Of a DNA stretch of 64,000 bases, positions 19,624 to 55,650 are shown piece by piece. The stretch comes from Candidatus Woesebacteria bacterium (GTDB taxonomy: Bacteria > Patescibacteriota > Microgenomatia > UBA8517), in contig CP066693.1 in NCBI GenBank assembly GCA_016432525.1, positions 849,639 to 913,638 of the forward strand, read 5' to 3'. Every line of letters begins with the position of its first letter. Position 1 is the first letter of the stretch. The position numbers and the translations under genes were made by a program. The notes under the pieces are model-generated. The model saw only the letters and a program-made list of their open reading frames with translations, did no database searches and was not told where the DNA came from.

Positions 19624-19652
19624 TTGACTTTTTCTTTATCTTATAGTATATT
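19624..19652 (+). promoter_or_regulatory. sigma70-like promoter (TTGACT-N17-TATATT) for the first small Cys-rich gene
   Basis: -35 TTGACT at 19624-19629, 17-bp spacer, -10 TATATT at 19647-19652. Confidence 0.45.
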
Positions 19653-19701
19653 TATGCAGTAGCAAATCGCTACTCTAGTAGCTTTTTTCGTGGAGGAACG
19701 G

Positions 19702-19980
19702 ATGCAAACGCCAGTATCTTTTATCAAAGAAGGTGGCAGCTTGCCGCACTCGTATCATAGGGATCCAATGATTCCCCGCGAGCGAGTGACCGCCGAGATC
19801 ACAAATTGCGCTTGCTGCGGTAAGCCAATCATGATCAAAGAGGGCGAAGATCCCCTCTGTCGGCGTTGCAAGAACCAGGGTGCGATCCCGGTTTTGTGTC
19901 GCATTGCAACCTGCACCACCATCATGTGGCGACGCAAGGACGAGCCTGCACCGGTTTGTTGCAATCACGAAAAAGTTTAG
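19702..19980 (+). CDS. small Cys-rich (zinc-ribbon-like) protein, paralog 1
   Basis: RBS GGAGGA before the ATG at 19702 (the ORF track's 19690 is a GTG). Cys pairs CACCG...CRRC and CRIATC...CC. GC-rich. Own terminator downstream. Confidence 0.5.
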   Translation: MQTPVSFIKEGGSLPHSYHRDPMIPRERVTAEITNCACCGKPIMIKEGEDPLCRRCKNQGAIPVLCRIATCTTIMWRRKDEPAPVCCNHEKV

Positions 19981-19992
19981 GGCCAAAGGGCC

Positions 19993-20040
19993 ATCCCGCA
20001 CTGACTTGGGTCAACCAACGTTAGCGCGGGATCTTTTTTG
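19993..20040 (+). terminator. rho-independent terminator
   Basis: ATCCCGC...GCGGGAT stem followed by TCTTTTTT. Confidence 0.6.
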
Positions 20041-20116
20041 CTCAAAAATTCATTTATTGATATAATATAATTCCTTAAATATTCGAGATGTCTTAGAGTT
20101 CATTGAAAGGAAAAAC

Positions 20117-20401
20117 ATGAGTAAGCATAGTAGGGCTCGGTTGTCGTTGGACAGAGTTGGCAATTACGTTTTTGGCGGAGTCTTAAATCACCCGCCATCG
20201 TATCTTCCCAATTACCAGTGTCTAAGTGACTATTCGCTTAGACAAAAGGTCATCGCCCAAAACGGCGGAAAGCCACCAACTTCCGGCGACATACGTGCAC
20301 TAAAGCCTTCCTATCATATCCAGACATGTAGAGAGCCTGGTTGCACAACTAAAGGCATCACCAAAATTGGTGAACCATTTTTCTGTCGCAGACACAAATA
20401 A
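20117..20401 (+). CDS. small Cys-rich (zinc-ribbon-like) protein, paralog 2
   Basis: RBS AGGAAA. CREPGC...CRRH C-terminal motif. AT-rich promoter-like region with TATAAT at 20061-20071. Own terminator. Confidence 0.5.
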   Translation: MSKHSRARLSLDRVGNYVFGGVLNHPPSYLPNYQCLSDYSLRQKVIAQNGGKPPTSGDIRALKPSYHIQTCREPGCTTKGITKIGEPFFCRRHK

Positions 20402-32880: not shown

Positions 32881-33306
32881 ATGGCAGCAAAAAAAGTAAA
32901 AACTATCGTTAAAATTAACCTGAAAGGGGCAGAGGCAACTCCGGCCCCACCTGTTGGTACTGCATTAGGCCAACATGGTATTGCCATTATGGAATTTGTC
33001 AAAGCTTACAACGACAAAACAGCCAGCCTCAAAGGCCAGGTAGTCCCCGCAGTCATCACAATTTACGAAGATCGTTCATTTGATTTTATTATCAAAATGG
33101 CCCCAGTAGCTGATATGATCAAGAAAAAACTAGGAATCGAAAAAGGTTCAGGTAAAGTTCCATCAGTTACAGTCGGCACTCTCACAAAATCTCAAGTCGA
33201 AGAAATAGCCAAAGAAAAAATGCCAGATTTAAATACTGATAATTTAGAGGCAGCAGAAAAAATTGTTGCAGGTACAGCAAGATCGATGGGAGTAAAAATA
33301 GAATGA
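32881..33306 (+). CDS. rplK: 50S ribosomal protein L11
   Basis: MAAKKVKTIVKINLKGAEATPAPPVGTALGQHGI... Confidence 0.95.
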   Translation: MAAKKVKTIVKINLKGAEATPAPPVGTALGQHGIAIMEFVKAYNDKTASLKGQVVPAVITIYEDRSFDFIIKMAPVADMIKKKLGIEKGSGKVPSVTVGTLTKSQVEEIAKEKMPDLNTDNLEAAEKIVAGTARSMGVKIE

Positions 33307-37074: not shown

Positions 37075-37962
37075 CTAAATTATTTTTTCAAAATACTTAG
37101 CAAGTGCAGGTAGTTCTGGAGATATTTTATTATATGTAAAACCAGGGCCTCTATTTACTTCCAAAAGCCATGGTTTTCCTGCTTTGTCTATCAAAACATC
37201 AACTCCAGCTATCTCAAGTTTTAAGACCCTTGAAGATTTTGTCGCTATAGTTCGAATATCTGGCGGCACTTCTTTGGGGTCAAAAAATTCTTCAGATGCC
37301 CCTCGTGCAACATTTGCTCTAAACTCTCTTGGATCATCTTGAATCTTCTTTTCAGCTACAGCAATTCTATCACCCAAAACTAAAAGTCTATATTCGATAT
37401 CTCGCTCGCAATATTTTTGAAACATAAATCCTTCACTTGGATGTTTCTTGCGAAGTTCCATAAAATCATTGCGGTCTTTAAGTAAAAATACACCAATTCC
37501 TCTTTGAGTTTTTGGATTTTTAGAAACTACTGGAAGTCCAAATTTATTAATAATCCGATCAATGTTCTTTTCAATATTTCCTCTTGAACATAAAAATGTA
37601 GGAATTACCGGCAAGTCATTTATTGCAAGCCTAATAAGTGAAGGAAGCTTATCACCAGTATAACTGGCAAAACTAAATACTGAATCTATAAATCCAATAT
37701 GGTAATAATCCATACATATAGATAATGCTTTTGCAATTGAAGAATATCCAAAAGTTTTACGAAAATATATCAAATCAAAATCACGAAGGTCATGCTTTCC
37801 AATATTTACATCAATCTTTCCTCTTTCAAAACTAAACTCAATATCTGAAAAAGATGCCGTCAAAACATCAACTTTTCCTTTTAAATCATGTTTTACATGT
37901 GAATAAATACTATCTTTTGTTTTCTCCTCTTTGCCCATTAAAATTAGAAGCTTTTTTTTCAT
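37075..37962 (-). CDS. RimK-like ATP-grasp ligase (paralog 1)
   Basis: PVVSKNPKTQRGIGVFL and GVDVLIDKAGKPWLLEVNRGPGF ATP-grasp signatures. Confidence 0.75.
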   Translation of the reverse strand: MKKKLLILMGKEEKTKDSIYSHVKHDLKGKVDVLTASFSDIEFSFERGKIDVNIGKHDLRDFDLIYFRKTFGYSSIAKALSICMDYYHIGFIDSVFSFASYTGDKLPSLIRLAINDLPVIPTFLCSRGNIEKNIDRIINKFGLPVVSKNPKTQRGIGVFLLKDRNDFMELRKKHPSEGFMFQKYCERDIEYRLLVLGDRIAVAEKKIQDDPREFRANVARGASEEFFDPKEVPPDIRTIATKSSRVLKLEIAGVDVLIDKAGKPWLLEVNRGPGFTYNKISPELPALAKYFEKII

Positions 37963-38062
37963 TACTCAGATTATATGCTTAAAAAATTAATAACACAAAA
38001 AAATGCCACGTATTTGGTGTAATTTGCCAATATACGTGGCTAACTAAAATATTAAAACAGAT

Positions 38063-38665
38063 TCATACGAGTCGACCGGTCAGGAAAAGCCAGATAGCCC
38101 AAACCGTCTCTTGCGAAACAGAGGCCAAGACCTTGGTCGGCGGCTCATAAGCCAAAAAGGTGGTGTCTATGATCCTAAGAGCCTCATCATTCCCAGCGTT
38201 GGACTTCCTGAGCCACTTCCAAACCCTACGATTCAGGTTGGGAATGAACTTCGGGTCATCAGTAACGACATAAAAAAGCAGATCAGCCGCCCACTGATGA
38301 GCACCACGGCCTTCTGTGCCGGGAATCGGCTCACCAGTTTTATTGCTGACAATCTTTGTGCTCTCACCCTGCATGGAATCATCACAGAGATTAATCAGTC
38401 TCTCAAGTGTCTCCTTGCCCAAAATTGCCTCCATAGCAGGTCCACGCCCGGTCGTAATCGACCGAAATTGGGTCTCCTCCCGGATTTGCCTCATTACCTT
38501 TGGTCCCAGTTTGTCTGGATCAAGGTTGTAACCCAAGATGGTAAGCCATACCCGCATTGCCGTAAGCTGATCAAAGCTAAAAAATTCAATCGGATACGGA
38601 TTCTCTGAGTTAACTAAATTGAGAATAATCCGATCAATTTCTTCACGAATATCTTTAGGTGCCAT
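38063..38665 (-). CDS. hypothetical protein (200 aa), GC-rich, embedded in the ATP-grasp array
   Basis: Clearly higher GC than its neighbours. No recognisable motif. A 9-bp perfect inverted repeat lies downstream (38005..38040). Confidence 0.4.
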   Translation of the reverse strand: MAPKDIREEIDRIILNLVNSENPYPIEFFSFDQLTAMRVWLTILGYNLDPDKLGPKVMRQIREETQFRSITTGRGPAMEAILGKETLERLINLCDDSMQGESTKIVSNKTGEPIPGTEGRGAHQWAADLLFYVVTDDPKFIPNLNRRVWKWLRKSNAGNDEALRIIDTTFLAYEPPTKVLASVSQETVWAIWLFLTGRLV

Positions 38666-38734
38666 TTCTTCCTCCAGGCTACTTAGCCTTAGAATATAGA
38701 ATAGTAAACATATTATATCATACTACAGGATAGT

Positions 38735-39622
38735 TTAACTACTTTGAAGAGTCTCAAAATATTTAATGATTTCGAGAGCTGCATTTACGCTCGTATATTT
38801 TTCCAGACCTTCAAACTGAGGGGCTGGATTTACCTCAAGTATATATGGCTTGTCAGTTTCTTTATTTATCATAATATCAACTCCTGCAATTTGAGTTCTC
38901 ACAACAGCTGCTACACTCTCGGCCAATTCTCTAACATCCGCTCGACTATTCAAATCAAAATTAGAACCCATCCCTCCTTGACTGATATTACTTCTAAACT
39001 CCCCGATCTTTGGAGTTCTCTTCATGGCCCCAACTGCTTTATACCCAACACAAAAAACTCTAATATCTCCATCGTTTGGAATAAACTCTCTTACAACAAA
39101 CGATAAAGAACTTTTAAGTATTTCGGAAGCCCTAGCTTTAAGCTCATTCATATCATTTGCCTTAAATACACCTTTACCTTTTCTTCCATCACTTCTTTTA
39201 ATAATGATTGGAAATTTAAATTCACCAGAAAAATTATCTAAAAATTTTATTGAAAAGAAAAGAAAGCTTCTTGGATATTGAAAGTTATTTTGAGTTTGCC
39301 TTAAATAATCTATGGCAGGAGTTAAAAAATAATTATACGTTGGGTCAATCACCTTCTTATTTACTATTATGGTTTTATATTTCTCCGCTAAATATAAAAA
39401 CGCTGTATACCATTCCCATCTTCTTTTGCTAGTTAGGGAATAAACTAGATTATATGAGGACAAATCATGTCCAGTTAGAATTGGTTTAAATTCATTAGTT
39501 GATGTATCAATTATAAGATCAGATGAAAGAGATCCCAAAACTTCATGTCCTCTTTTTTTACCTTCTTCAGAAAGTCTTTCAAACTGAATTCCTTTTGTAA
39601 GTCCAACAATAAGTATTTTCAT
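38735..39622 (-). CDS. RimK-like ATP-grasp ligase (paralog 2)
   Basis: FPIIIKRSDGRKGKGVF and GVDIMINKETDKPYILEVNPAPQF. Confidence 0.75.
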   Translation of the reverse strand: MKILIVGLTKGIQFERLSEEGKKRGHEVLGSLSSDLIIDTSTNEFKPILTGHDLSSYNLVYSLTSKRRWEWYTAFLYLAEKYKTIIVNKKVIDPTYNYFLTPAIDYLRQTQNNFQYPRSFLFFSIKFLDNFSGEFKFPIIIKRSDGRKGKGVFKANDMNELKARASEILKSSLSFVVREFIPNDGDIRVFCVGYKAVGAMKRTPKIGEFRSNISQGGMGSNFDLNSRADVRELAESVAAVVRTQIAGVDIMINKETDKPYILEVNPAPQFEGLEKYTSVNAALEIIKYFETLQSS

Positions 39623-40491
39623 TTTGCATTTGCAATTGCGTGTTCAACATAAACTTTCCCAATATTCTTTGAATATGCCTTTTCCATCCCGATAAAACCA
39701 GCAGTATGATTAACCTCCAATAAATATTTTTTGTTTTGCTTATCAATCAAGATATCTACTCCAGCAACGCTCATGTCAACAGCTTTTACGGCCAAATTAG
39801 CCAGTTTACGGCTTTCGCTATCAAGCTCAATAGTTTCAACACTTCCACCAAGAGAAAAATTTGCTCTAAACTCACCCTGCCCTGGAATTCTTCTCATTGG
39901 AAAAATCTCCCCTCCGATAACCAAAGCTCTAATATCATATTCATAATCAATGAATTTTTGCGCTATAAAACTTTTTGCTTCTTTTCCCTCTTCCTGAAGT
40001 TTCGAAATAAGATCGTTTAGTTCGTTTTGATTATTTAGCTTATATACAGAAGCCCCCTTGCCCATCCTGGATGATTTAAAAACAAATGGAAATCCTAAAG
40101 TTTGAGATGCTTTTTTATAATCTTCAAAATCCCTAGAATAAAAGCTGTCTGGAATAGGTAAATGATTAATATTAAGCCTCAATATATCACCGATTTTATC
40201 GATTGAATATTGATGTTTGAGTACATTATTGTCAAAAATCTTTATTCCTCTTTCCTTAAGCGCCACTATAACATTTGAGATAGATTTTATTGATGTAAAT
40301 ATCCCCCTAACAATTGCGATATCACAATTTAAATTATCTAACTTATCTACATTTAGTTTGTTATCAATTATAGAAAATTTAAATTCCGATAGATCAACGA
40401 GCTCAAAATCATGTCCCAAAGCACGTATTTCTTCTTCAATTCTTTTGTTTTCATCAAGACTTGTTAAAGTTGTAATAAGAGATATCTTCAT
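39619..40491 (-). CDS. RimK-like ATP-grasp ligase (paralog 3)
   Basis: FPFVFKSSRMGKGASVY and GVDILIDKQNKKYLLEVNHTAGF. 4-bp overlap with paralog 2. Confidence 0.75.
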   Translation of the reverse strand: MKISLITTLTSLDENKRIEEEIRALGHDFELVDLSEFKFSIIDNKLNVDKLDNLNCDIAIVRGIFTSIKSISNVIVALKERGIKIFDNNVLKHQYSIDKIGDILRLNINHLPIPDSFYSRDFEDYKKASQTLGFPFVFKSSRMGKGASVYKLNNQNELNDLISKLQEEGKEAKSFIAQKFIDYEYDIRALVIGGEIFPMRRIPGQGEFRANFSLGGSVETIELDSESRKLANLAVKAVDMSVAGVDILIDKQNKKYLLEVNHTAGFIGMEKAYSKNIGKVYVEHAIANAK

Positions 40492-40507
40492 TTTTATTAT
40501 TTGTGAT

Positions 40508-41845
40508 TCATACCTGTTTATGACTCCAAAGCTTCTGATACCAATCCGCGCTTTTGTCTATCTGCTTTGGACTAACCAAAAATCCTGACAAATCTCGTCT
40601 TCCTATTATAATCTGAGATCTTAAATTTGATCTATTTGCTAAACTTGCAATCGTAACAATTTTCCTCCCAGCTAGATAGAATGTCAAATTGATAACTGTT
40701 CTATTTTCCTTACCCAAGCCACTTTTTACCTTTTTCGACCATAAAATATTTTCTTTTGTTACGAGTCCCAGTTTTTTTGCCAAGTCCCTATCCATTGAAG
40801 TTCTCCATGCACCAGTATCAATTTTTGCAATCATTTCGTGTTTCTTGCTACTGTTGGATACCACTTTTATTTTTTCCCAAGTATTAATTGTTTTAATTCC
40901 ATCATCAGGAATTACTCTGTTTCCAAATCTTTCTCCAAAGATAGCTTTGGCTATCTTTACAGCATGCTCGCTATCTCTTACTTCCAAATCCTCTACACGA
41001 TCCAATCTTTTTTTAAGACCAGCCATATTGGCAAGTTGAATTTGAAGTCCGGGTCGTGCATTTAACTCCAATATCATAGGCCCATCAGTTGGATGAAGTA
41101 TAATATCCACACCAACATATCCAAGCCCACAAGCTTCAGCAGTTTTAGATGCAAGATCCAAAATCTTATTCCATTGAGGAATTTTAATTCCATTGAGCTT
41201 TCGCTTTGTATCAGGCTTGTAAATTATCGGATTTCCATGATAAATTGCCCGTGTTGTAATACCAGTTGCAATATCAATTCCAACAGCAACCGCTCCTTGA
41301 TGAAGATTTGCTCTTCCTCCTGATTCCTTTGTAGGGAGTCTGAGCATTGCCATAACCGGAATTTTGTTAAAAACAATAACACGGATATCAGGTGTTCCGC
41401 GATACGCATATCGCAAAAATGCCTTATGTCTTCCAACATATTCCTGAATAAATGCAACGTCAGGCACATTTCCAAGGCTATAAGCCCCTTCCAAAATATC
41501 AACAACCTTAAGCTTCAAGTCCTCAACTGTAACTCTCTCTTTTTGCGTTGTAACCCACCCGTTTCCATCTCTAGCCTTTCTTTTAATAACTACGATTCCC
41601 TCGCCTCCAAATCCTCTGCTTGGTTTTAATACAAAACTACTGGGTAATTTTTCCCAACTAAAATCAGTTATATCCGCCAAACTTTTGAATCTTTTGTAAA
41701 CCATTGGGGTTGGAATTTTAGCCCTTTTCAAAACTCTATACATCTGAAGTTTTGAATCAGCGATTCTTTTTCCAACTCTTGAATTATATTTATATAAATA
41801 AAGCTGCGATCTTGCATTGAGTCCCAATATTGAAGAAATTTTCAT
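40508..41845 (-). CDS. ATP-grasp ligase (paralog 4) fused to a C-terminal retropepsin-like aspartyl peptidase domain (RimB/'ATP-dependent Zn protease'-like)
   Basis: N-terminal ATP-grasp (VLKPSRGFGGEGIVV ... GVDIILHPTDGPMILELNARPGL). C-terminal KIDTGAWRTSMD (DTGA) retropepsin-like signature. Confidence 0.65.
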   Translation of the reverse strand: MKISSILGLNARSQLYLYKYNSRVGKRIADSKLQMYRVLKRAKIPTPMVYKRFKSLADITDFSWEKLPSSFVLKPSRGFGGEGIVVIKRKARDGNGWVTTQKERVTVEDLKLKVVDILEGAYSLGNVPDVAFIQEYVGRHKAFLRYAYRGTPDIRVIVFNKIPVMAMLRLPTKESGGRANLHQGAVAVGIDIATGITTRAIYHGNPIIYKPDTKRKLNGIKIPQWNKILDLASKTAEACGLGYVGVDIILHPTDGPMILELNARPGLQIQLANMAGLKKRLDRVEDLEVRDSEHAVKIAKAIFGERFGNRVIPDDGIKTINTWEKIKVVSNSSKKHEMIAKIDTGAWRTSMDRDLAKKLGLVTKENILWSKKVKSGLGKENRTVINLTFYLAGRKIVTIASLANRSNLRSQIIIGRRDLSGFLVSPKQIDKSADWYQKLWSHKQV

Positions 41846-41864
41846 AATTTATTACAAGCTTTGC

Positions 41865-42674
41865 TTATTTTGACTTAATCAGTTTTCTAAATCGATAGTA
41901 TTCCAAAAATCTTAAACCCGAATATTTTCCAATTACAAAATCCAAAACAGCAACTCCTATCAAAAGAATTTCGGGATGAGCAAGAGCAAAACTTCTCAAA
42001 ACCTGAGTAACCAAAAGAAGGTATGACAAAAAACCCAAAAACAGTGTTTCTGCTGTTATCTTGATGGCTGTTTTCCCAGATTTTCCAAGTTGAACTCTTG
42101 TAAAATCCTCAGACAAAAGAACCAAAACAAGGACAGGGAAAATAGATACATTTGCTATGTCAATTCTTCCGATTACAGGAGTTAAAAATACAAGTCCGAG
42201 TAAACATACTGCAATTGCCCAAAGTATAAATGCCATACGAGGAAGATATTGCAACCTAACCTTGGCATCCCTCAAAAAGACACGCGTAAATGTAGACACA
42301 AAAACAATTATTAGAAATAAAATAATTCCAATCAAAGGGCCTATTGATAAAAATACAACAGAAAGCGCTGCAGGAAGTAAAATTCCAAAACCTCGAATAC
42401 CAACTATGTGGCGAATTGCAGCAATCAAAGATGCAACCAGAGGTAATAATAGAAGAAGAGTTATAGTATCCGAAGACACTCCTGATGCAATCGCATAGGA
42501 AATCGCATAAGATATAACATTCCCAGGCCAAAAAGCCGATGTCCCAGCCAAAAATCTATTAGCAATAAAAAAAGTTAAAACAAATGTTGCCAAAAAAAAG
42601 GTAAGAAGTGTTACTTTTCGAAGGGTTGTCATGGAAATAAGCTCCAAAATTATACCATTTTTTGAAGATGTCAA
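41865..42674 (-). CDS. polytopic (about 7-8 TM) membrane protein heading the ATP-grasp operon
   Basis: Seven to eight hydrophobic helices. Sits where 7TM partners of RimK-like/peptidase systems are described. Divergent from the rSAM gene. Confidence 0.45.
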   Translation of the reverse strand: MTSSKNGIILELISMTTLRKVTLLTFFLATFVLTFFIANRFLAGTSAFWPGNVISYAISYAIASGVSSDTITLLLLLPLVASLIAAIRHIVGIRGFGILLPAALSVVFLSIGPLIGIILFLIIVFVSTFTRVFLRDAKVRLQYLPRMAFILWAIAVCLLGLVFLTPVIGRIDIANVSIFPVLVLVLLSEDFTRVQLGKSGKTAIKITAETLFLGFLSYLLLVTQVLRSFALAHPEILLIGVAVLDFVIGKYSGLRFLEYYRFRKLIKSK

Positions 42675-42810: not shown

Positions 42811-43929
42811 ATGAACGAATGGATATTCAGGACTTTCAGTCCAATAATAAAAGTCGTTGGAGCGGGATGTAATTTAAGATGTACATACTGCTTCTACTTT
42901 GGACATCAGCCAAAGATAAATATAATGGGAAATGATGTGTTGAAACTAGTATTAAGCGAGTGTCTTCAAGCGGCGTCTTTCGTTAGATTCATCTGGCACG
43001 GAGGTGAACCCACAATAGCAGGAGCAGAATATTATCGAAAGATACTTGCCATAGAAGACAAAGTTCGTAGAGATGGTCAAAAAGTTACTCATAGTATACA
43101 AACCAATGCTACGCTTTTAAATCCTCAATGGATTGATCTTCTTAAATCCAAGAGATTCTCTATCGGAGTAAGCATTGATGGGCCAGAATACCTCCATAAT
43201 TTTGCTAGAATCAACGCAAACGGTCGCGGATCATTTAGAGAGGTTCAAAAAGGTATCGTGCTATTTCGGAATGCAGGAATAAAATTCGGCTCAATCGCTG
43301 TAGTCAATAGTTACACAGTGAATTTCCCTGAAGAAATATTCTGGTTTATGTACAATCAGAAAATTTCCTTTAGTGCTAATGCGTGTGTAGCATATCCTAG
43401 CGATCCAGAGGAGGTCAGACAATTAACAATAAGCCCAATGCAATTCTCTAATTTCCTTCTTCGATTGTTAGATCTATGGCTAAAAACAGATGATCCAACA
43501 TTCAACATCAAGCCATTAGATGACATAATCAAAGGAATATTAGGACGACAACCTTCTCTGTGTAGATATCGCGGACAATGTCAAATGTATCTAACAATAG
43601 ACTCCAATGGAGATGTTTATCCATGCGATGAGTATCTAAATCAAAATTACAACTTTGGCAACCTAAGACAAACGCCATTGAAAAAAATTGTTCAAAGCAC
43701 AAACCTCAATGAGTACTATGCAGGCAGAACAATCATGCAAACTGTCTGTCAAAACTGTCAATGGTTCAATATCTGCAAAGGAGGCTGTATGAGAGAATGG
43801 GGCGGTTCTAAATCCATTACCGACCCTAGAGAAACGGAATTCTGCAAAGCTCGACAGTTTCTGTTCGAGGAAGTAAGAGATCGAATTCAGCTATTGGGAT
43901 ATTCCAAAAAGGAGATTCTAAATGTCTGA
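42811..43929 (+). CDS. radical SAM enzyme with C-terminal SPASM domain (peptide-modifying maturase type)
   Basis: CNLRCTYC (CxxxCxxC) near the N-terminus. C-terminal CQNCQWFNICKGGC (Cx2Cx5Cx3C) plus additional auxiliary-cluster Cys. Confidence 0.9.
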   Translation: MNEWIFRTFSPIIKVVGAGCNLRCTYCFYFGHQPKINIMGNDVLKLVLSECLQAASFVRFIWHGGEPTIAGAEYYRKILAIEDKVRRDGQKVTHSIQTNATLLNPQWIDLLKSKRFSIGVSIDGPEYLHNFARINANGRGSFREVQKGIVLFRNAGIKFGSIAVVNSYTVNFPEEIFWFMYNQKISFSANACVAYPSDPEEVRQLTISPMQFSNFLLRLLDLWLKTDDPTFNIKPLDDIIKGILGRQPSLCRYRGQCQMYLTIDSNGDVYPCDEYLNQNYNFGNLRQTPLKKIVQSTNLNEYYAGRTIMQTVCQNCQWFNICKGGCMREWGGSKSITDPRETEFCKARQFLFEEVRDRIQLLGYSKKEILNV

Positions 43930-44167
43930 CATACTCATATCCACAATCAGATGCGTGGCAATCCCACCTCCGTCTCACATCGGTCCTTCTCAAATCGTAA
44001 ACGCTCTTTTGGCAAACAGCAGCCCTCTTGCTATAAATGCCAATATGCCTGCAATAGACGGCGAAGAGGATTGGGACGACGATTGGGACGATAGCTGGTC
44101 GGAACATTCAGATGGGCCAAGCTGGGGTGACGGCGACCAATGGAGTGATTCCACTCACAATCCATAA
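43922..44167 (+). CDS. candidate RiPP precursor peptide (81 aa) with five Trp-x-Asp/Glu repeats
   Basis: ATG overlaps the rSAM stop (atgtctga). Leader-like N-terminal half, then core EEDWDDDWDDSWSEHSDGPSWGDGDQWSDSTHNP. Confidence 0.55.
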   Translation: MSDILISTIRCVAIPPPSHIGPSQIVNALLANSSPLAINANMPAIDGEEDWDDDWDDSWSEHSDGPSWGDGDQWSDSTHNP

Positions 44168-44272
44168 CGTCGAAAACTACAACATAGTATGCTAAAATAA
44201 AAAGCCTGGATCCTACTTGCTCTAAACAAAAGTGGGATCTGGGCCTCTCTGAAACGAGAGATACAAAAAATT

Positions 44273-45277
44273 ATGAATCTCAACTTCCGAATTACAAAAA
44301 CTTCTAATCTTTTTCATTTCATCTCAAATCTAACTAACTGGCATTTCAGTGTTAGACCTTCATACAAAAGATACTGGTTAGAAAAAACTGGTCCACTTAC
44401 AAAAAAAGAGGAAGAAACACTTCAAGAAGTAGATTCTTTATTTAAAAAATACAATTTTGGTCCCAATTACTGGGGACACGTACTATTAACAGAAGAAGAT
44501 GAAATTGTTTGGGAAAAAGCAAATAAAAAATTTGGGGCAAAAGATACCGAAAAATTCAGGCATTTTGAAAAAGTATTTTCAAAAAGATTTGAAAAAATCT
44601 GGACAGAAGACAAAAACAAATTAACTGAATGGAAAAAAGTATTAGAAAGATCAAATCAAAATAAAACTTCTGATAAACTTATTGAAACTCTAAATTCATT
44701 ATTTGGAAAAGACGGGGGCGGAGAGGTGATTGATGTAATCTTACTATTAAGCACTCCTAACACACGAGGTGCTGGTGGTGGAAATCTAGCTCCTCGCGCT
44801 ATTACATTGGAAGTATCTCAAACTCCAGACCAGTATACTACTAACGTTCAACTTATGCTTTGGCACGAACTTGTTCACGTAATTTGGGAAAAAGGACCGT
44901 ATCAAAAAACATTCAATAACTTTCACGAAAAGTTATTGAATTCAGGAGCTCTATCTCCTGTAGAAAATGTCCCATTAAGAGTTACACTCAACGAAGCTGT
45001 AATGGAATCCCTCTTACCTTATGGATATCTTGGATATAAATATTTCAATTATAAAAGTAAAGATTACTTCAATGAAATACTTTCGAAACTTGAAAACAAT
45101 TTCGACAAGAATCAAGTGATGATATATTGGCGAGTATATTCTGCCAACAAACTTTTTGAATTATCTCAAAATTATTGTGAAAGAGGAAAAGCAATTGATA
45201 AAGACTTTTTAGAAAAGGTTGTAAAAATAATGATTGAATTTATTAATAAAAGGTGGAGTCTATCAACCAATCCCTGA
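44273..45277 (+). CDS. hypothetical protein with an HExxH motif (WHELVH); possible metallopeptidase
   Basis: LMLWHELVHVIWE. Immediately downstream of the precursor. Confidence 0.35.
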   Translation: MNLNFRITKTSNLFHFISNLTNWHFSVRPSYKRYWLEKTGPLTKKEEETLQEVDSLFKKYNFGPNYWGHVLLTEEDEIVWEKANKKFGAKDTEKFRHFEKVFSKRFEKIWTEDKNKLTEWKKVLERSNQNKTSDKLIETLNSLFGKDGGGEVIDVILLLSTPNTRGAGGGNLAPRAITLEVSQTPDQYTTNVQLMLWHELVHVIWEKGPYQKTFNNFHEKLLNSGALSPVENVPLRVTLNEAVMESLLPYGYLGYKYFNYKSKDYFNEILSKLENNFDKNQVMIYWRVYSANKLFELSQNYCERGKAIDKDFLEKVVKIMIEFINKRWSLSTNP

Positions 45278-48344: not shown

Positions 48345-49160
48345 TTATATCATAAGTCTGCTTTTTAGTACCAATATAGGGAAAACAAAGACTGCATTAT
48401 AAATTCTTGAAATTCTTGATGGCTCTTTTATAAGTCTCCACATCCACTCCAATCCTATAGCTGAAAGCCATTCAGGGGGTAAACTAGCCTCACCTGAAAA
48501 ATAATCCAAGGTTCCACCAACAACCATCACTCCTTTTACTTTTAGATTTTCAATATTATCAAATACCCATTTCTCCTGCTTTGGTGCGCCAAATGCTACA
48601 AACAAAAAATCTGGCTTAGACATATTAATATCTCTTAAAGTATCTTTATATAACTTACTATCTACTTCTGAGACAGGCTTCGCATCATTATTTAGTTTAG
48701 GTCCAGAATTTCCTTGAATATTTATATTAGGGAACTCTTTTAGTATTTTTTCGATGCATCTTTTATTTACTCTATTTACTCCTCCAAGAAGAAAAACTTT
48801 ATATCCACGCTCATTGGCTATCTTAAGCAGTTCAATAAACATTTCCCTTCCTTTTGTTATCCTATATCCATCAAACCCTAAAACTTTCAGTGCTAATTTT
48901 AGTCCTACTCCATCAACGATTGAAATATTACTTTTCTCCAAAGATTCTTTTAGTTTTTTGTCATCTTGTGCCTGAACAATTATCTCAGGGTTCGGAGTAG
49001 TTATGTAAAATTTTTTGCCTCTTGTTAGGCAAAAATCAACTTTTTCTAGCACTTCGCGCTTATCTTTGCTAGTAATTTTTACTCCTAAAACAGTGGCATG
49101 AGTTTGACCTTTTCTCATAAATTTAAGGCTAAATACATCTCTAACATTACCACAAACCAA
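48345..49160 (-). CDS. WecG/TagA/CpsF-family glycosyltransferase (GT26)
   Basis: VFLLGG...VAFGAPKQEKWV...GVGGTLDYFSG signature. Confidence 0.8.
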   Translation of the reverse strand: MVCGNVRDVFSLKFMRKGQTHATVLGVKITSKDKREVLEKVDFCLTRGKKFYITTPNPEIIVQAQDDKKLKESLEKSNISIVDGVGLKLALKVLGFDGYRITKGREMFIELLKIANERGYKVFLLGGVNRVNKRCIEKILKEFPNINIQGNSGPKLNNDAKPVSEVDSKLYKDTLRDINMSKPDFLFVAFGAPKQEKWVFDNIENLKVKGVMVVGGTLDYFSGEASLPPEWLSAIGLEWMWRLIKEPSRISRIYNAVFVFPILVLKSRLMI

Positions 49161-49410
49161 AATATAATTGCAATTTTTGTGATTCCTTTCTTAAAAACTA
49201 CTTTTACCTATAACATCCTAAATCTCATCCAAAAAGTCAAAATTTTAAGTTTTACTATATTCATACATAATTCTAATTTAACAAGCAAAAATTACTTATT
49301 TTGTGTAAAAAAATTTTCCTTTTTTCTGAAGCTACAAATAAAAATACATGCCCAATTTATCCACAATTTGTAGATCGTTAAGCTTACAAAATATAGGACA
49401 TAGCAAAAAT

Positions 49411-49440
49411 TTGACAGTAACTTTCTAAATCAAATATAAT
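49411..49440 (+). promoter_or_regulatory. near-consensus sigma70 promoter TTGACA-N18-TATAAT
   Basis: Directly upstream of the 49484 peptide gene. Confidence 0.55.
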
Positions 49441-49483
49441 CAATCTTGTCCGGGAATTTTTAAGTACAGAAAGGAAACTGAAA

Positions 49484-49636
49484 ATGTTTGTTTTCTCTCT
49501 ACACGAAGAGGAATTGCCGGAAGACATAGCAAACGGCCCAGTTGAAATGGAAGACGGTCCCGTCGAAGGATTAAGCCCTCTACACGTCACATCAAATCCA
49601 GACGCCGACGAAGGGGACAAGGATCCTGAACAGTAA
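49484..49636 (+). CDS. small acidic peptide (50 aa)
   Basis: RBS AAAGGAAA before the ATG. MFVFSLHEEELPEDIANGPVEMEDGPVEGLSPLHVTSNPDADEGDKDPEQ. Promoter and terminator present. Confidence 0.45.
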   Translation: MFVFSLHEEELPEDIANGPVEMEDGPVEGLSPLHVTSNPDADEGDKDPEQ

Positions 49637-49663
49637 TCACATAAGTTGATTCTTTAATTCAAA

Positions 49664-49718
49664 TGCCCTGCGCAAACGAGAAATCTATATATCTCAATAA
49701 ACGCAGGGCACTTTTTTT
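49664..49718 (+). terminator. rho-independent terminator (9-bp stem, long loop, T7 tract)
   Basis: TGCCCTGCG...CGCAGGGCA followed by CTTTTTTT. Confidence 0.45.
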
Positions 49719-49741
49719 AAAATTCTTCTTCCTATAATATA

Positions 49742-49770
49742 TTGACTCATTTGAAATCTTGTAATATAAT
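49742..49770 (+). promoter_or_regulatory. near-consensus sigma70 promoter TTGACT-N17-TATAAT
   Basis: Directly upstream of the 49809 peptide gene. The ACAGAAAGGA leader resembles the 49484 leader. Confidence 0.55.
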
Positions 49771-49808
49771 ACGCTTATCCAATTTTTTGGCACAGAAAGG
49801 ATTCAAAA

Positions 49809-49955
49809 ATGCCAACCGTATATTGGATGAGCAGCGACGATGATGACGAGGTCTCAAATCCTGGCACCCCGCCGCCGGAATTGGGTGAGCCGCAAAGCGA
49901 CCCGCCGCCTTCTGGAACCGAAATCGATGAGAATGGAGAACCCACCGGTAGTTAA
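49809..49955 (+). CDS. small acidic Pro-rich peptide (48 aa)
   Basis: RBS AAAGGA. MPTVYWMSSDDDDEVSNPGTPPPELGEPQSDPPPSGTEIDENGEPTGS. Confidence 0.45.
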   Translation: MPTVYWMSSDDDDEVSNPGTPPPELGEPQSDPPPSGTEIDENGEPTGS

Positions 49956-50042
49956 CATCTAGTCGCAAGTCACAGTGAGCGAGTTCACCTCCAAAGATTT
50001 ACCTCTTTGAATGAATTCGCTCATATATCATAATAAAAAATA

Positions 50043-51272
50043 ATGCCTCATCAAATAAAAACTTCAAAGAACGGTCTAACAATAATTCTTTCAATACAAC
50101 CCAATGTCAAAATTACAACAATAGTTTCTTCTTCTAGAGCTGGCTCAAGATATGAGACAAAGGAAGAGAGAGGATATGCACACTTAATGGAACACACAAT
50201 GCTTCTAGGATCAAAAAATTATTCTCAAAAAGACATAAATTCTAATCTTGATCTTTACGGAGGATATCTAAACGCTCTCACAAATCAGGAATTTGTTAAA
50301 TGCACAATGCAGGTATTATCTGAAAACGAAGAAAAACTCTTGCCTATTTTTGCAGATTTGTTAGAAAACCCTATTTTTAACGAAAAAATATTAAATAACG
50401 AGAAAAAAGTTGTTTTGGAGGAAATAAAACTATTTGAAGGCAAATATCGAGAAATACTTTGGAGAAATACTCTTCAAAAAATTTTACCTAAAAACCATCC
50501 CCTTACAAATCATGCTTTAGGTGAAGTGAATACAATCAAAAAGGCATCCAGTGACCATCTAGCTAAATACCACAATCGAACAATGCAGCCAAACCAAACA
50601 GTAATTTGTATAATTACACCCAATAAAAGTGGCCAAAAAGCTTCAGAATACATATTAAATAATCTTTGGAAGAACCAAAAAATTGAAACTCAAAAGAATA
50701 ATAAAATAACAACAAAAATTAAACAAGCTTATATTGAAATGGAAATACCCACTCCCCAATCTCAAATTCTAATAAATTATGCAACAAAAAGACTTGAATA
50801 CAAAGAGTCACTTATCTTGCATTTAATTTCAACTTACTTGGGATATGGAAAAACTGGGGCACTTAAAGACATGCTCAGGAGTCAAAAGGGTCTAATATAT
50901 AGTCTGCAAACCATGACTCCTTCTTATCAAGAAATGTCTTGTTTCGCTGTAGCGACATCATCCACAAAACCTAAAGAAGTTATAGAAGTAATAACTAATA
51001 AATTAGAAAGTTTATCTCAAAGCATAACAGATCAAGAAATTGAAATTGCAAAAACTAAACTTATAAACTCAGTCTCTCTTTCTTTTGTAAATCCCATAAA
51101 TGAATGTAATGTTCTTCTCAGTGAATATCAAAATTACAATATAGTTCAGACAAACGAGGAGAGAAAAGAGAAAATAAAAAAAATCAAACCAGAAGAAATA
51201 AAGGAAATTGCCTCTAGGCTACTCAAGCCACAAAACAGAGCAATAGCTATTGGAAAAGGAAAATCAGATTAA
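50043..51272 (+). CDS. M16-family (insulinase-like) zinc peptidase
   Basis: Inverted zinc motif HLMEH (HxxEH) plus downstream E. 409 aa. Confidence 0.75.
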   Translation: MPHQIKTSKNGLTIILSIQPNVKITTIVSSSRAGSRYETKEERGYAHLMEHTMLLGSKNYSQKDINSNLDLYGGYLNALTNQEFVKCTMQVLSENEEKLLPIFADLLENPIFNEKILNNEKKVVLEEIKLFEGKYREILWRNTLQKILPKNHPLTNHALGEVNTIKKASSDHLAKYHNRTMQPNQTVICIITPNKSGQKASEYILNNLWKNQKIETQKNNKITTKIKQAYIEMEIPTPQSQILINYATKRLEYKESLILHLISTYLGYGKTGALKDMLRSQKGLIYSLQTMTPSYQEMSCFAVATSSTKPKEVIEVITNKLESLSQSITDQEIEIAKTKLINSVSLSFVNPINECNVLLSEYQNYNIVQTNEERKEKIKKIKPEEIKEIASRLLKPQNRAIAIGKGKSD

Positions 51273-51277
51273 TTTTT

Positions 51278-52285
51278 TTACCTCTTAGTAGTAATACTTC
51301 TTTTCCAAAGATCAATATTCTCTAAAACAATCCCAGTTCCCCTTACAACACAATAAAGCGCATCGTCTGCAACATGAGATGGCACTCCAGTTTCATCAGT
51401 CATAAGCCTGTCAAAATTGCGAAGAGTCGAAGTTCCGCCACTCATAATAATTCCTTTATCAATAATGTCAGATGCCAATTCAGGCGGAGTATCTTCTAAA
51501 ACCCCCTTGACAGCACCAATAATTTGATCTAATACGGGCCTTATTGCATCAGTAATTCCTTGCGAAGAAACTATTACACTTCTGGGGAGTCCAAAAACTA
51601 AGTCTCGTCCTGAAATCTCTATCTTTTCATCTTTAGTCAAATGTGTTGCAGATCCAATCTTAATTTTTATATCCTCAGCAGTCTGTTCTCCAACGATTAG
51701 ATTGTGTTTCTTCTTCATATAATTTTGAATTGCCTCATCGATTTTGTTTCCAGCAACTCGAACACTGCGACTAATTACAACTCCTCCAAGAGAAATTACT
51801 GCAGCCTCAGCTGATCCCCCACCAACATCCAAAATCATATGCCCAGAGGCAGCATTAACAGGAATATTTGCTCCGATTGCTGCAGCTAGTGGCTCGTCAA
51901 TTAAATACGCATTCCCAGCTCCAGCTGAGCGCGTAGCATCTAAAGCTGCTCGTCTTTCAACTTGTGTACAACCAGCTGGAACGCAAACCATAACATCAGG
52001 TCTCACAAAATGAATTCTTCCTGTAACTTTACCAATAAAATACTTAAGCATCGCTTCAGTTACTTGATAGTCAGCAATCACTCCATCTCTCATGGGTTTT
52101 AATGCAATCAAAGAATCAGGAGTACGTCCAAGCATCCTTTTGGCTTCCTCCCCAACAGCTAAAACACTATTATCATCAGCTGAAATAGCAACAACAGTTG
52201 GCTCATTTGATATAAGCCCTTCTCCTGCTACCCAGACAAGAGTGTTAGCAGTTCCCAAATCAATAGCAATACGTTTCTTAATCAC
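51278..52285 (-). CDS. second MreB-like actin homolog
   Basis: IDLGTANTLVWVAGEGLISNEPTVVA... A paralog of the 5591..6637 mreB. Confidence 0.85.
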   Translation of the reverse strand: MIKKRIAIDLGTANTLVWVAGEGLISNEPTVVAISADDNSVLAVGEEAKRMLGRTPDSLIALKPMRDGVIADYQVTEAMLKYFIGKVTGRIHFVRPDVMVCVPAGCTQVERRAALDATRSAGAGNAYLIDEPLAAAIGANIPVNAASGHMILDVGGGSAEAAVISLGGVVISRSVRVAGNKIDEAIQNYMKKKHNLIVGEQTAEDIKIKIGSATHLTKDEKIEISGRDLVFGLPRSVIVSSQGITDAIRPVLDQIIGAVKGVLEDTPPELASDIIDKGIIMSGGTSTLRNFDRLMTDETGVPSHVADDALYCVVRGTGIVLENIDLWKRSITTKR

Positions 52286-53467: not shown

Positions 53468-53470
53468 TAA

Positions 53471-53722
53471 TTATTTAAGTTTTATATAAACAATGGCCAG
53501 ACGGGCAACAGAATATACAATAATAATGCCATCAAAAACTTCGTACACAATACGAAATGGCCATACCCGCAATGATCTCAAGCCTTTGAGCTCTCCCCTT
53601 AAGGGTTTACCAGCCAAAGGATCATCAGCCAAGATCTCAAGTTTGTTTATGATCTTCGTCTTCTCTTTTTTTGAAAGTCTCTTCAGTTGTTTAACTACTT
53701 GAGGTTTATATCTTATCTCCAT
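53471..53722 (-). CDS. RelE/ParE-family type II toxin
   Basis: MEIRYKPQVVKQLKRL...KIINKLEILADDP...GKPLRGELKGLRSLRVWPFRIVYEV. Immediately downstream of a Phd/YefM gene. Confidence 0.65.
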   Translation of the reverse strand: MEIRYKPQVVKQLKRLSKKEKTKIINKLEILADDPLAGKPLRGELKGLRSLRVWPFRIVYEVFDGIIIVYSVARLAIVYIKLK

Positions 53723-53733
53723 TCAACTACAAA

Positions 53734-53997
53734 TTACATTCCAATCTTTTCGAGAAGCTCTTTATGGGAAATAGTTGCCTTCTCTTTTCTGGCACCTCTT
53801 ATCACATTCGGCTCCTCTTTATTTGATAAAATGTCTAAAGTTTCAAACCAAGAATCAAGCTCATCTTTGCTTAAAAGAACCACAGAAGATCCACTTCTTA
53901 ATTTAATCTCATATTTTCTTATTCCTTTACTCGCAGCTTTTATTAAAGAATAGAGATTTTTTCTCGCTTCACTCGCAGTATAAACAATTGTATCCAT
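53734..53997 (-). CDS. Phd/YefM-family antitoxin
   Basis: ...YTASEARKNLYSLIKAAS...SVVLLSKDELDSWFETLDIL. Confidence 0.7.
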   Translation of the reverse strand: MDTIVYTASEARKNLYSLIKAASKGIRKYEIKLRSGSSVVLLSKDELDSWFETLDILSNKEEPNVIRGARKEKATISHKELLEKIGM

Positions 53998-54035
53998 ACA
54001 AAAATCGTACTACAACCAGTACGCATTGTCAACTG

Positions 54036-54107
54036 TGTCCCCGCCAAGAATCGAACTTGGATTTAAGGTTTAGGAAACCTCCGTTCTATCCGTTGAACTA
54101 CGAGGAC
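54036..54107 (-). tRNA. tRNA-Arg (CCT)
   Basis: Reverse complement GTCCTCGTAGTTCAACGGATAGAACGGAGGTTTCCTAAACCTTAAATCCAAGTTCGATTCTTGGCGGGGACA. Anticodon loop TTCCTAA. Confidence 0.8.
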
Positions 54108-54317
54108 GTGCCTAAATTATACCAAATTCGCCTAAAGTAAACTAATTTTTATCCAACACAACTCCAATCTCCCTTTTGAGTTTGCAATCAAAACCAACTA
54201 GTGATAAATTACACATTATGGGACTGGCTGAATAAGCTAGAATGGAATTGGGCATATTCACAATATGATGGACATAGAGCAGTATCATCAATCCTAATCG
54301 AAAGGAGGTAATAATTT

Positions 54318-54530
54318 ATGCCTATCGATATATGGAAAGACGATTGGCGCAATCTCGGAGATAACGTACACGGCGCAACCGTGAAAATCGACGACGATAA
54401 CACTCATACAACCGTTCATGGAGATGATTGGCATAGATCATGGGATACAAACCGGACCACAAACGAAATCTCACATGATCATGTCACAACCCATGATGAT
54501 CACGAGCACTATGACGTAGACAAACTCTAA
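54318..54530 (+). CDS. small His/Asp/Trp-rich peptide (70 aa)
   Basis: RBS AAAGGAGG. MPIDIWKDDWRNLGDNVHG...DDWHRSWDT...HDDHEHYDVDKL. Confidence 0.45.
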   Translation: MPIDIWKDDWRNLGDNVHGATVKIDDDNTHTTVHGDDWHRSWDTNRTTNEISHDHVTTHDDHEHYDVDKL

Positions 54531-54645
54531 GTCTAATCATATTTGTAACTGTCTAATTCCAAACTGAAGAGTGCCTCAAAAGGTACAGATCCCATCTGTA
54601 GAATTAACAATTCCACTCTTCTTACAATAAGATATAATAAAGTTT

Positions 54646-54984
54646 ATGAGCGACCCAAAACAACCACTTTATAAATATCTATTTGAATATTGTAAAGAAA
54701 ACAAATCATTAGGCCACAAAGCCACTAAGGATATTTTAAATAAAGCAGTTAAAGACTTTCTTAAAAAGGAAATAAGTATAAAAGAATTAAGTAGCATCGG
54801 AGAACAATTACTATACGAATTAAATAAGCCTTCAGAACCATACAATTGGCCTGGTACAACTGGTAATTTATTGTCTGATCTATCCGAATTCGATTATTAT
54901 TCAAATTTAGCGTCAAAAGGTGACAAAGGAGCAGAAAAGTATATCCAAAAACTTCTATCAGAGATAAAAGATTGGATTAAATAA
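54646..54984 (+). CDS. hypothetical protein (112 aa)
   Basis: ORF only. Confidence 0.35.
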   Translation: MSDPKQPLYKYLFEYCKENKSLGHKATKDILNKAVKDFLKKEISIKELSSIGEQLLYELNKPSEPYNWPGTTGNLLSDLSEFDYYSNLASKGDKGAEKYIQKLLSEIKDWIK

Positions 54985-55650
54985 CTATTTATCCACAACC
55001 ACCACAATCTCCCCTTTAATCTTTTCAGGCATGATACTCAGAACTTCAGATATTGTTCCACGATAGATAGTCTCATAAATCTTAGTAAGCTCACGGCATA
55101 CACAAATCCTTCTATCTCCCACACTCTCAAGAATTTCAGTTAAAGTTTTTCTGATTCTAAATGGTGACTCAAAAAATATAATTGGCATATCAATCTCTTT
55201 GATTCTTTCAAAAATCTTTTTCCTTCCTTTTTTGGGCATAAATCCCAAAAATTCAAATTTGCTCATATTAAAACCACAAATAGAAATAGAAGAAGTCAAA
55301 GCTGACGCCCCCGGAATAGATATTATTTTAATCCCGTTCTCATTCGAGGTTAAAAACTCAACAAGCTCATTTCCAGGATCAGAAACCGATGGAGTACCTG
55401 CATCTGTTACCAGTGCTAGACTACTCCCCTTTCGCAAAAGAGATATTATGGTGGCATACTTCTTATCTGAACTGTGCTGATGGTAACTGTCAAGAGGAGT
55501 CTTTATATCGTAATGCATCAAAAGTAGTCTTGTTTTTCTAGTATCCTCACAAAGTATCAAGTCAACACTCTTTAAAATCTCTAGTGCTCTTAAACTAATA
55601 TCCCCCAGATTCCCAATCGGTGTAGCAACAATAAACAAGCTTCCAGCCAT
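54985..55650 (-). CDS. rsmI: 16S rRNA (cytidine1402-2'-O)-methyltransferase
   Basis: MAGSLFIVATPIGNLGDISLRALEILKSVDLILCEDTR... Confidence 0.85.
   Translation of the reverse strand: MAGSLFIVATPIGNLGDISLRALEILKSVDLILCEDTRKTRLLLMHYDIKTPLDSYHQHSSDKKYATIISLLRKGSSLALVTDAGTPSVSDPGNELVEFLTSNENGIKIISIPGASALTSSISICGFNMSKFEFLGFMPKKGRKKIFERIKEIDMPIIFFESPFRIRKTLTEILESVGDRRICVCRELTKIYETIYRGTISEVLSIMPEKIKGEIVVVVDK

Follow-up and report, generated by a model that had tools for sequence, protein, structure and literature searches.

Bacteria of the candidate phyla radiation (CPR) have not been brought into culture, and orphans make up a large part of their genes. Among the described systems with which small acidic gene products can be compared, Pup and UBact carry the C-terminal motif GGQ/GGE or R[TS]G[EQ], Ocr, ArdA and similar acidic DNA mimics are folded proteins, and PqqA carries the motif E-x3-Y. 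A literature search on small acidic proteins and Shine-Dalgarno (SD) use in Woesebacteria and CPR bacteria returned nothing useful. Here we describe two small tandem units, gene A and open reading frame (ORF) B, in a 64,000-nucleotide stretch of contig CP066693.1 of a Candidatus Woesebacteria bacterium (the window). Judged from the sequence and its comparison with one relative, gene A is a genuine protein gene of a narrow lineage that was missed by annotation. We hold with moderate confidence that A is a real lineage-restricted gene for a disordered protein and is expressed alone, that B is a cassette of the same style, and that both belong to an accessory class of genes. The features of the two units are as follows.

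49411 to 49440, plus strand: promoter of gene A, TTGACA-N18-TATAAT, 12/12 match to the consensus
49441 to 49483, plus strand: 5' untranslated region (UTR) of gene A, with the SD-like sequence AGAAAGGA at 49468-49475, 8 nt 5' of the ATG
49449 to 49521, plus strand: predicted 5' hairpin of A, in which the leader (UCCGG, AAUU, SD) pairs with codons 2-13 and encloses the SD and the AUG
49484 to 49636, plus strand: gene A, encoding the 50-aa acidic protein MFVFSLHEEELPEDIANGPVEMEDGPVEGLSPLHVTSNPDADEGDKDPEQ
49665 to 49718, plus strand: intrinsic terminator of gene A, with an 8-bp GC stem, a 29-nt loop and T7
49742 to 49770, plus strand: promoter of ORF B, TTGACT-N17-TATAAT, 11/12 match
49771 to 49808, plus strand: 5' UTR of ORF B, with AGAAAGGA at 49794-49801, 7 nt 5' of the ATG
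49809 to 49955, plus strand: ORF B, 48-aa acidic and Pro-rich product MPTVYWMSSDDDDEVSNPGTPPPELGEPQSDPPPSGTEIDENGEPTGS, coding status unproven
49975 to 50024, plus strand: long hairpin behind ORF B, with a 13-bp outer and a 6-bp inner stem and without a T-run

Both ORFs and their consensus promoters were found as the first-pass annotation of the window had proposed. The two near-perfect promoters stand in tandem, each about 40 nt 5' of an SD-ATG. When the whole window was scanned on both strands, eight sigma-70 sites matching the consensus in at least 11 of 12 positions were observed (3.95 expected), two of which were 12/12 matches (0.12 expected). The hairpin and T7 terminator described behind the first gene is also present: GCCCTGCG (49665-49672) pairs with CGCAGGGC (49702-49709) and is followed by T7 at 49712-49718. 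A consensus scan overlooked this terminator because of its 29-nt loop. The picture of independent, promoter-driven, monocistronic small-gene units is supported. Their extreme acidity and elevated GC were likewise confirmed, as A and B are the two most acidic products among the ORFs of 30-130 aa in the window, and their GC content at third codon positions (GC3) is 0.46 and 0.56, respectively, compared with 0.18-0.36 in ordinary genes (ribosomal protein genes included) of this AT-rich window (36.9 % GC).

Relatives were reached via the 90 %-identity MreB cluster, and the interval between the mreB stop codon and wecG was compared among them. The identities of WecG and MreB and the content of the interval are given below.

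Window: WecG 100 %, MreB 100 %; A, B and the M16 peptidase gene
L131: WecG 84 %, MreB 97 %; A' only
L132/L133: WecG 67 %, MreB 93 %; 233 bp, no gene
L134: WecG 53 %; 314 bp, no gene

The sister genome L131 (NCBI GCA_040960765.1; synonymous divergence (dS) of MreB 0.54) has one small gene (A') in the mreB-wecG interval, in the position and orientation of gene A. Its 54-aa product, MFTPLHDEELPEDIRVFVEPHDDDGPVEGLSPLHNPPPKADDALEEDSEDSNNS, is 51-60 % identical to that of A, depending on the alignment. Both hexamers of the promoter and their 18-nt spacing are shared unchanged by the two genomes, with three changes that all fall within the spacer; the 5' UTR is 84 % identical and the ATG-TTT start is retained. 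A' also ends in a terminator (GCCCTG...CAGGGC followed by T5), which abuts the mreB stop codon. The differences between A and A' number 17, 15 and 29 at codon positions 1, 2 and 3, their indels are of 3 nt and in frame, and the composition of A' by codon position (0.72/0.33/0.50) is in the same style as that of A. Two blocks are conserved, LH[ED]EELPEDI and DGPVEGLSPLH. The DGPVEGLSPLH block contains eight synonymous codon changes and no replacement; the sole replacement in the scored stretch of the second block is an E/D change in the codon preceding it. Thus, gene A is regarded as a genuine protein gene, given an ortholog with kept signals, a block changed by synonymous substitutions only, and in-frame indels. 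A substitution pattern inconsistent with coding had been named beforehand as an outcome that would count against the gene; the pattern in A is synonymous-biased, as seen with a single ortholog. The nonsynonymous divergence (dN) of A is 0.32 compared with 0.016-0.088 in mreB, wecG and the PEGA-domain gene, which indicates that A evolves fast outside its motifs. On this comparison, purifying selection acts only on the blocks LHxEELPEDI and DGPVEGLSPLH, and the rest, especially the C-terminal third, changes fast.

The recommended search for homologs and their neighbours yielded an ortholog of A at the same position in L131 and none for B. A word-indexed search of 5.8 billion protein clusters returned only A itself and missed the L131 ortholog. 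Scans of viral and metagenome sequences with A, B and the A/A' alignment gave no match, nor did blastn against phage genomes, and neither A nor B matched an entry in Pfam, NCBIfam or PHROGs. An ankyrin repeat was considered for the GLSPLH stretch and rejected, as there was no Pfam match and GLSPLH merely resembles the ANK motif G-x-TPLH (per-stretch E-values of at least 290 in the PDB profile search).

For ORF B, phmmer against 1.84 billion representative proteins returned B itself only; no homolog was found in viral contigs, JGI metagenome contigs or phage genomes, and no counterpart at the L131, L132/L133 or L134 loci. The B island contains ORFs of at least 34 aa in five of the six frames. 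Transcript B folds at z = -3.66, its most conspicuous stable element being the hairpin at 49975-50024, and its leader has a weak predicted AUG-enclosing hairpin (z = -1.04). A derivation of B from antisense mreB was rejected, as the tblastn match was weak, there was no DNA similarity and the score lay below those of shuffles. B is probably, not demonstrably, translated, as judged only from its signals and by analogy with A. Of the two small genes proposed at first, A is therefore upheld by its ortholog and synonymous block, and B is unproven.

The first-pass annotation had further described the two as paralogous genes with a shared leader and ribosome-binding site. The shared leader stands: the 5' UTRs of A and B align at about 28 of 38 positions (z = 5.2; none of 5000 shuffles as high), each carries AGAAAGGA before its ATG, and exact copies of the 10-mer ACAGAAAGGA occur only at 49466 and 49792. 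The 10-mer in the arrangement ACAGAAAGGA-N4-5-AAAATG was rejected as a specific signature; with more than 120 unrelated matches in viral contigs, it represents by itself merely a good ribosome-binding context. Upstream of the -35 boxes, no significant similarity was found. The paralogy is unsupported because the peptides are not detectably similar: BLASTP gave no alignment between A and B, their local, global and gapless scores did not exceed those of composition-preserving shuffles (p = 0.79, 0.75 and 0.39, respectively), and B against the A' peptide gave an E-value of 14. Only the 5' UTRs are alike.

When the other genes of the window were compared with A and B, two modes of initiation were observed. 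Ordinary genes have no SD and often carry TATAAT 4-12 nt 5' of the ATG, as would be expected of leaderless mRNAs (for example at 32881, 36683, 50043, 51278-52285 and 52310). Nine GC3-rich ORFs (about 0.39-0.56; 20117, 28861, 38063, 43922, A, B, 54318, 59157 and 60182) have a clear SD in 9/9 cases; most of them look monocistronic, most end in a hairpin and T-run, and none has a family match. With a GC3 cut-off of 0.39, an SD is present in all eight genes above the cut-off and in 5/53 others (Fisher p = 4e-7), and a start-proximal -10 box in 0/8 and 22/53, respectively; 60182 was counted in the low-GC3 group of this test since its GC3 is 0.387. Two members encode obvious proteins, one with transmembrane helices and one with a signal peptide, which supports counting A and B among the genes of this style. 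The earlier grouping of A and B with other small GC-rich genes of the window is thus a fair one, and the shared traits are a GC3 of about 0.39 or more, an SD and, mostly, a terminator. The class would most plausibly consist of accessory or acquired genes. We consider this SD/GC3 dichotomy of the genome a more notable by-product than A and B themselves.

Two more small genes in tandem, both GC-rich, SD-led and rich in Cys, were seen at 19624-20050 and 20117-20401. The first member is an ORF of about 92 aa (approximately 19703-19981) preceded by TTGACT-N17-TATATT and GGAGGA and ending in a hairpin and T-run; its region folds unusually well (z = -5.1) and has no Rfam match. The second member is the 94-aa ORF at 20117.

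RNA structure was analyzed for both transcripts. The predicted 5' hairpin of A has a minimum free energy of -22.7 kcal/mol (z = -2.87; 0/200 shuffles), and a hairpin of the same architecture is predicted in L131 (z = -2.41). The first 15 codons of A share 88 % nucleotide identity with L131, which exceeds what the protein requires and fits a constraint at the RNA level. In the body of transcript A, folding barely exceeds that of shuffles (z = -1.79). Rfam 15 detected only tRNAs in the window, and the best scores at 49300-50100 were 11-18 bits against cut-offs of 60-98. A CsrA sponge was also considered and rejected, as GGA motifs showed little enrichment (p = 0.04 and 0.36) and the window encodes no CsrA-like motif.

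The genes flanking A and B are listed below.

uppS, minus strand: beside wecG, on the side away from gene A
48345 to 49160, minus strand: wecG
50043 to 51272, plus strand: M16 peptidase gene (Pfam PF00675 and PF05193, HxxEH present)
51278 to 52285, minus strand: mreB, followed by the PEGA-domain gene on the plus strand

The order is uppS (-), wecG (-), gene A (+), ORF B (+), M16 (+), mreB (-) and PEGA (+). Identical NCBI Woesebacteria proteins with HY044_ locus tags exist for M16, WecG, MreB and several hypothetical proteins. The genes between 43922 and 54318 correspond to exactly nine proteins with accessions in series (QQG47451 to QQG47459), and as the series QQG47450 to QQG47460 leaves no free accession, gene A and ORF B are missing from the GenBank annotation. 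The exact A and B peptides are held solely by Logan gene calls for assemblies SRR12113414/5, both of which are base-identical to the window, with no polymorphism found; ORF B was called in just one of the two.

The window and L132 are homologous up to about 15 nt before the -35 box of A, where L132 enters the mreB stop codon. This break, together with the A' terminator abutting the mreB stop codon, indicates that A, B and M16 occupy a gain-and-loss spot directly 3' of mreB. The most parsimonious order is that A arrived before the window and L131 diverged and that B and M16 were added afterwards in the lineage of the window, with losses possible. The M16 gene is absent between mreB and wecG in L131, L132 and L134. 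It looks leaderless (CATAAT 8 nt 5' of the ATG); the nearest homolog of its product in a protein search is 33 % identical and without synteny, and a contig scan gave relatives at 22-26 % identity among the matches listed.

Some further observations concern this locus. The strain-specific M16 gene is bracketed by a direct repeat, the 10-mer TTTACCTCTT at 49998-50007 and 51277-51286, which is the mreB stop-codon junction and also occurs after the A' terminator in L131. The repeat could be an insertion scar, or could have arisen by chance given other 10-11-nt repeats nearby. In the mreB-wecG spacer, a perfect DnaA-box consensus, TTATCCACA (49357-49365), lies inside the motif ATTTATCCACAATTT, which is kept in the window and L132 and has one-mismatch versions in L131 and L134. 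Further perfect DnaA boxes were found at 54989 and 55688. The spacer is not a replication origin, as it has neither a DnaA-box cluster nor a skew switch. The block at 53468-54984 is a further strain-specific insertion, located beside a tRNA. It contains a ParE/PhD toxin-antitoxin pair, tRNA-Arg(CCT), the 70-aa His/Asp/Trp-rich gene (54318) and a 112-aa gene, and sits between the PEGA and TP_methylase genes, which adjoin in L131 and L134.

On the other side of the locus, a cluster at 37075-42674 comprises three RimK-like ATP-grasp genes, ATPgrasp_ST (with weak protease-like matches at its C-terminus), 7TM_transglut and a GC3-rich 200-aa orphan (38063). At 42811-45277, between 7TM_transglut and an HTH_17 gene, lie a radical SAM (rSAM)/SPASM gene, an overlapping 81-aa Trp/Asp-rich gene (43922) and a 334-aa gene. 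The 7TM_transglut and HTH_17 genes are adjacent in L134, and the small gene at 43922 is annotated as 70 aa in a second metagenome-assembled genome of the same species (HYS03).

Several points weigh against the reading of A and B as same-style protein genes. A has a single ortholog, so that the evidence for selection comes from one pairwise comparison, and the antisense frame with common wobble positions is almost as conserved (11/13 versus 11/14 residues). Given the T-poor composition, the open frame of A is not beyond chance (p = 0.08) and neither is that of B (p = 0.18); as both islands are T-poor, the open frames are not significant alone. B lacks comparative support and shows little periodicity in GC by codon position (0.62/0.54/0.56). 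Comparison of the window with L131 revealed no compensatory pairs in the 5' hairpin of A, which is therefore inferred rather than demonstrated. AlphaFold predicted coil for both products, with predicted template modelling scores (pTM) of 0.14 for A and 0.22 for B, from single sequences without an alignment.

Three of the alternatives draw on these points. The near-equal conservation of the antisense frame raises the question of whether the true gene is the minus-strand ORF at 49384-49620 (78 aa), which overlaps A and is open in L131 as well (90 aa). Its conservation is an expected by-product of the wobble positions shared with A. In view of the near-equal conservation, the coding strand was assigned by the promoter, SD, ATG and terminator and not by substitution pattern alone. 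The minus-strand ORF lacks a start codon, SD or promoter that is kept in both genomes, ends differently in the two, crosses the promoter of A and would encode a low-complexity Ser/Gly-rich product; we regard it as highly improbable. It is less far-fetched, if still unlikely, that only A is functional and B is a decaying or non-functional remnant, in which a duplicated promoter-leader of A was fused to foreign or random GC-rich DNA. The confinement of A/B similarity to the promoter and leader, the absence of B from all three relatives and from the collections searched, the lack of a T-run terminator and the weak codon periodicity are all in line with such a remnant. However, its consensus promoter, SD and ATG are intact and its frame spans the entire GC-rich island; B is also identical in SRR12113414/5, though these apparently represent one population. 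To a comparable, small degree we allow for the transcripts, that of B particularly, being small non-coding RNAs whose ORFs are by-products of T-poor, GC-rich sequence. The chance-level open frames, the five open frames of the B island, the folding of transcript B beyond shuffles, the GC3 of A and B, atypical for the genome, and the nucleotide-level conservation of the first 15 codons of A would fit this. Against it, variation in A is concentrated at codon position 3, its indels are in frame and its SD and ATG are kept; there is no Rfam match at gathering or E-value thresholds, and the stable folding in B is seen most conspicuously in the terminal hairpin and is slight in the body of A. The weak GGA enrichment without a CsrA-like motif in the window and the obvious proteins encoded by same-style genes also argue against RNA-only transcripts.

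The first-pass annotation had raised the possibility that A and B are substrates in trans for the ATP-grasp/rSAM enzymes. In a wider form, A and/or B would be precursors of ribosomally synthesized and post-translationally modified peptides (RiPPs), modified in trans by these enzymes or cut by the adjacent M16 peptidase. The conserved N-terminal blocks and hypervariable Ser/Thr/Lys/Asp/Glu-rich C-terminal third of A resemble a leader and core, an M16 gene that looks active from its sequence lies 3' of B, B and M16 are each confined to this genome, and four ATP-grasp genes and the rSAM/SPASM gene lie 5.5-12 kb upstream. However, no modifying enzyme adjoins A or B: the nearest gene of the ATP-grasp cluster ends at 42674, 6.8 kb from A. 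L134 retains uppS, HTH_17, 7TM_transglut and ATPgrasp_ST and has neither A nor B, which argues against A and B as substrates of that system. The ATP-grasp genes are RimK-like rather than graspetide-ligase-like, and the dedicated, adjacent and co-occurring ATP-grasp ligase of graspetides was not found for A or B. The rSAM gene already has a small gene of its own, which overlaps it at 43922. As for a PQQ-type pair, A' stands alone between mreB and wecG without an M16 neighbour, neither peptide contains E-x3-Y, the M16 gene appears to have its own start-proximal promoter, and its product scores 37.6 bits against the PqqF model (cut-off 320). Both peptides lack Cys and match no precursor family in Pfam, NCBIfam or PHROGs. 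The claim of substrates in trans is thus not sustained, and we consider RiPP precursors at this locus improbable.

The reading of A as an expressed protein gene suggests the following course. A would form a transcription unit by itself, starting at a consensus sigma-70 promoter and ending at an intrinsic terminator, and its mRNA would have a leader of about 37 nt and an SD, a rare mode in a genome of mostly SD-less, often leaderless-looking genes. The 5' hairpin probably encloses the SD and AUG, thereby gating or stabilising the message, and could serve in translational gating or 5'-end protection. The product would be a highly acidic, predicted disordered, cytoplasmic protein of about 50 aa; by reading, no signal peptide, transmembrane segment or Cys is visible in A or B, both of which also lack Arg, and no secretion tool was applied. 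Its most likely action may be to bind a partner protein via LHxEELPEDI and DGPVEGLSPLH, with the acidic tail as a possible flexible or charge-mimicking appendage. The small regulatory or chaperone-like role that the first-pass annotation had named as the other option may also apply. B would be a second cassette with an A-like promoter, leader and composition, found in this genome only. A bolder proposal, which we advance as a long shot, is that A and B are the tip of a class of strongly promoted, SD-dependent, GC3-rich microprotein genes of this episymbiotic CPR bacterium, whose other mRNAs would be mostly leaderless. Such genes would insert at hot spots like the mreB 3' end, and their products would act as disordered acidic effectors or decoys (for example, charge mimics on host or phage factors) under hairpin gating.

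In practice, a promoter-plus-SD signature can recover real small genes missed by annotation pipelines. In composition and translation, such genes can stand apart as a class of their own from the rest of a largely leaderless genome. If this class is general, it offers a simple handle for accessory or effector microproteins in CPR genomes and raises the question of why these genes use another initiation mode.

When compared with known systems, the locus recalls PqqA/PqqF, sboA/albEF and graspetides in that B lies beside an M16B-type peptidase and A has a conserved N-terminus and a variable C-terminus. Unlike those systems, A and B have no adjacent modifier, precursor-family match or conserved core motif, the ortholog of A has no M16 neighbour, and the RimK-like ATP-grasp genes occur in a relative without A or B. 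Like Pup and UBact, A and B are small, acidic and predicted to be disordered, and A ends in Gln. However, they lack the C-terminal motif of Pup and UBact (their C-termini are PEQ in A, NNS in A' of L131 and TGS in B), the C-terminus is the least conserved part of A, and the window showed no ligase or proteasome genes. Ocr/ArdA-type DNA mimics share the strong net negative charge and small size; in contrast to these folded proteins, A and B are predicted coil and have no phage or defence context and no PHROG match. The likeness is greatest in kind to lineage-specific small proteins (orphan sORFs), with which A and B share a length of about 50 aa, the lack of annotation, no homologs beyond a narrow clade, their own promoter and SD and, for A, a terminator and fast evolution save for short motifs. 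They differ from these in an unusually strong consensus promoter, extreme acidity, a GC3 of about 0.5 compared with 0.25 for the genome, and an SD-led start amid mostly leaderless genes. A is another orphan microprotein, of a kind already known.

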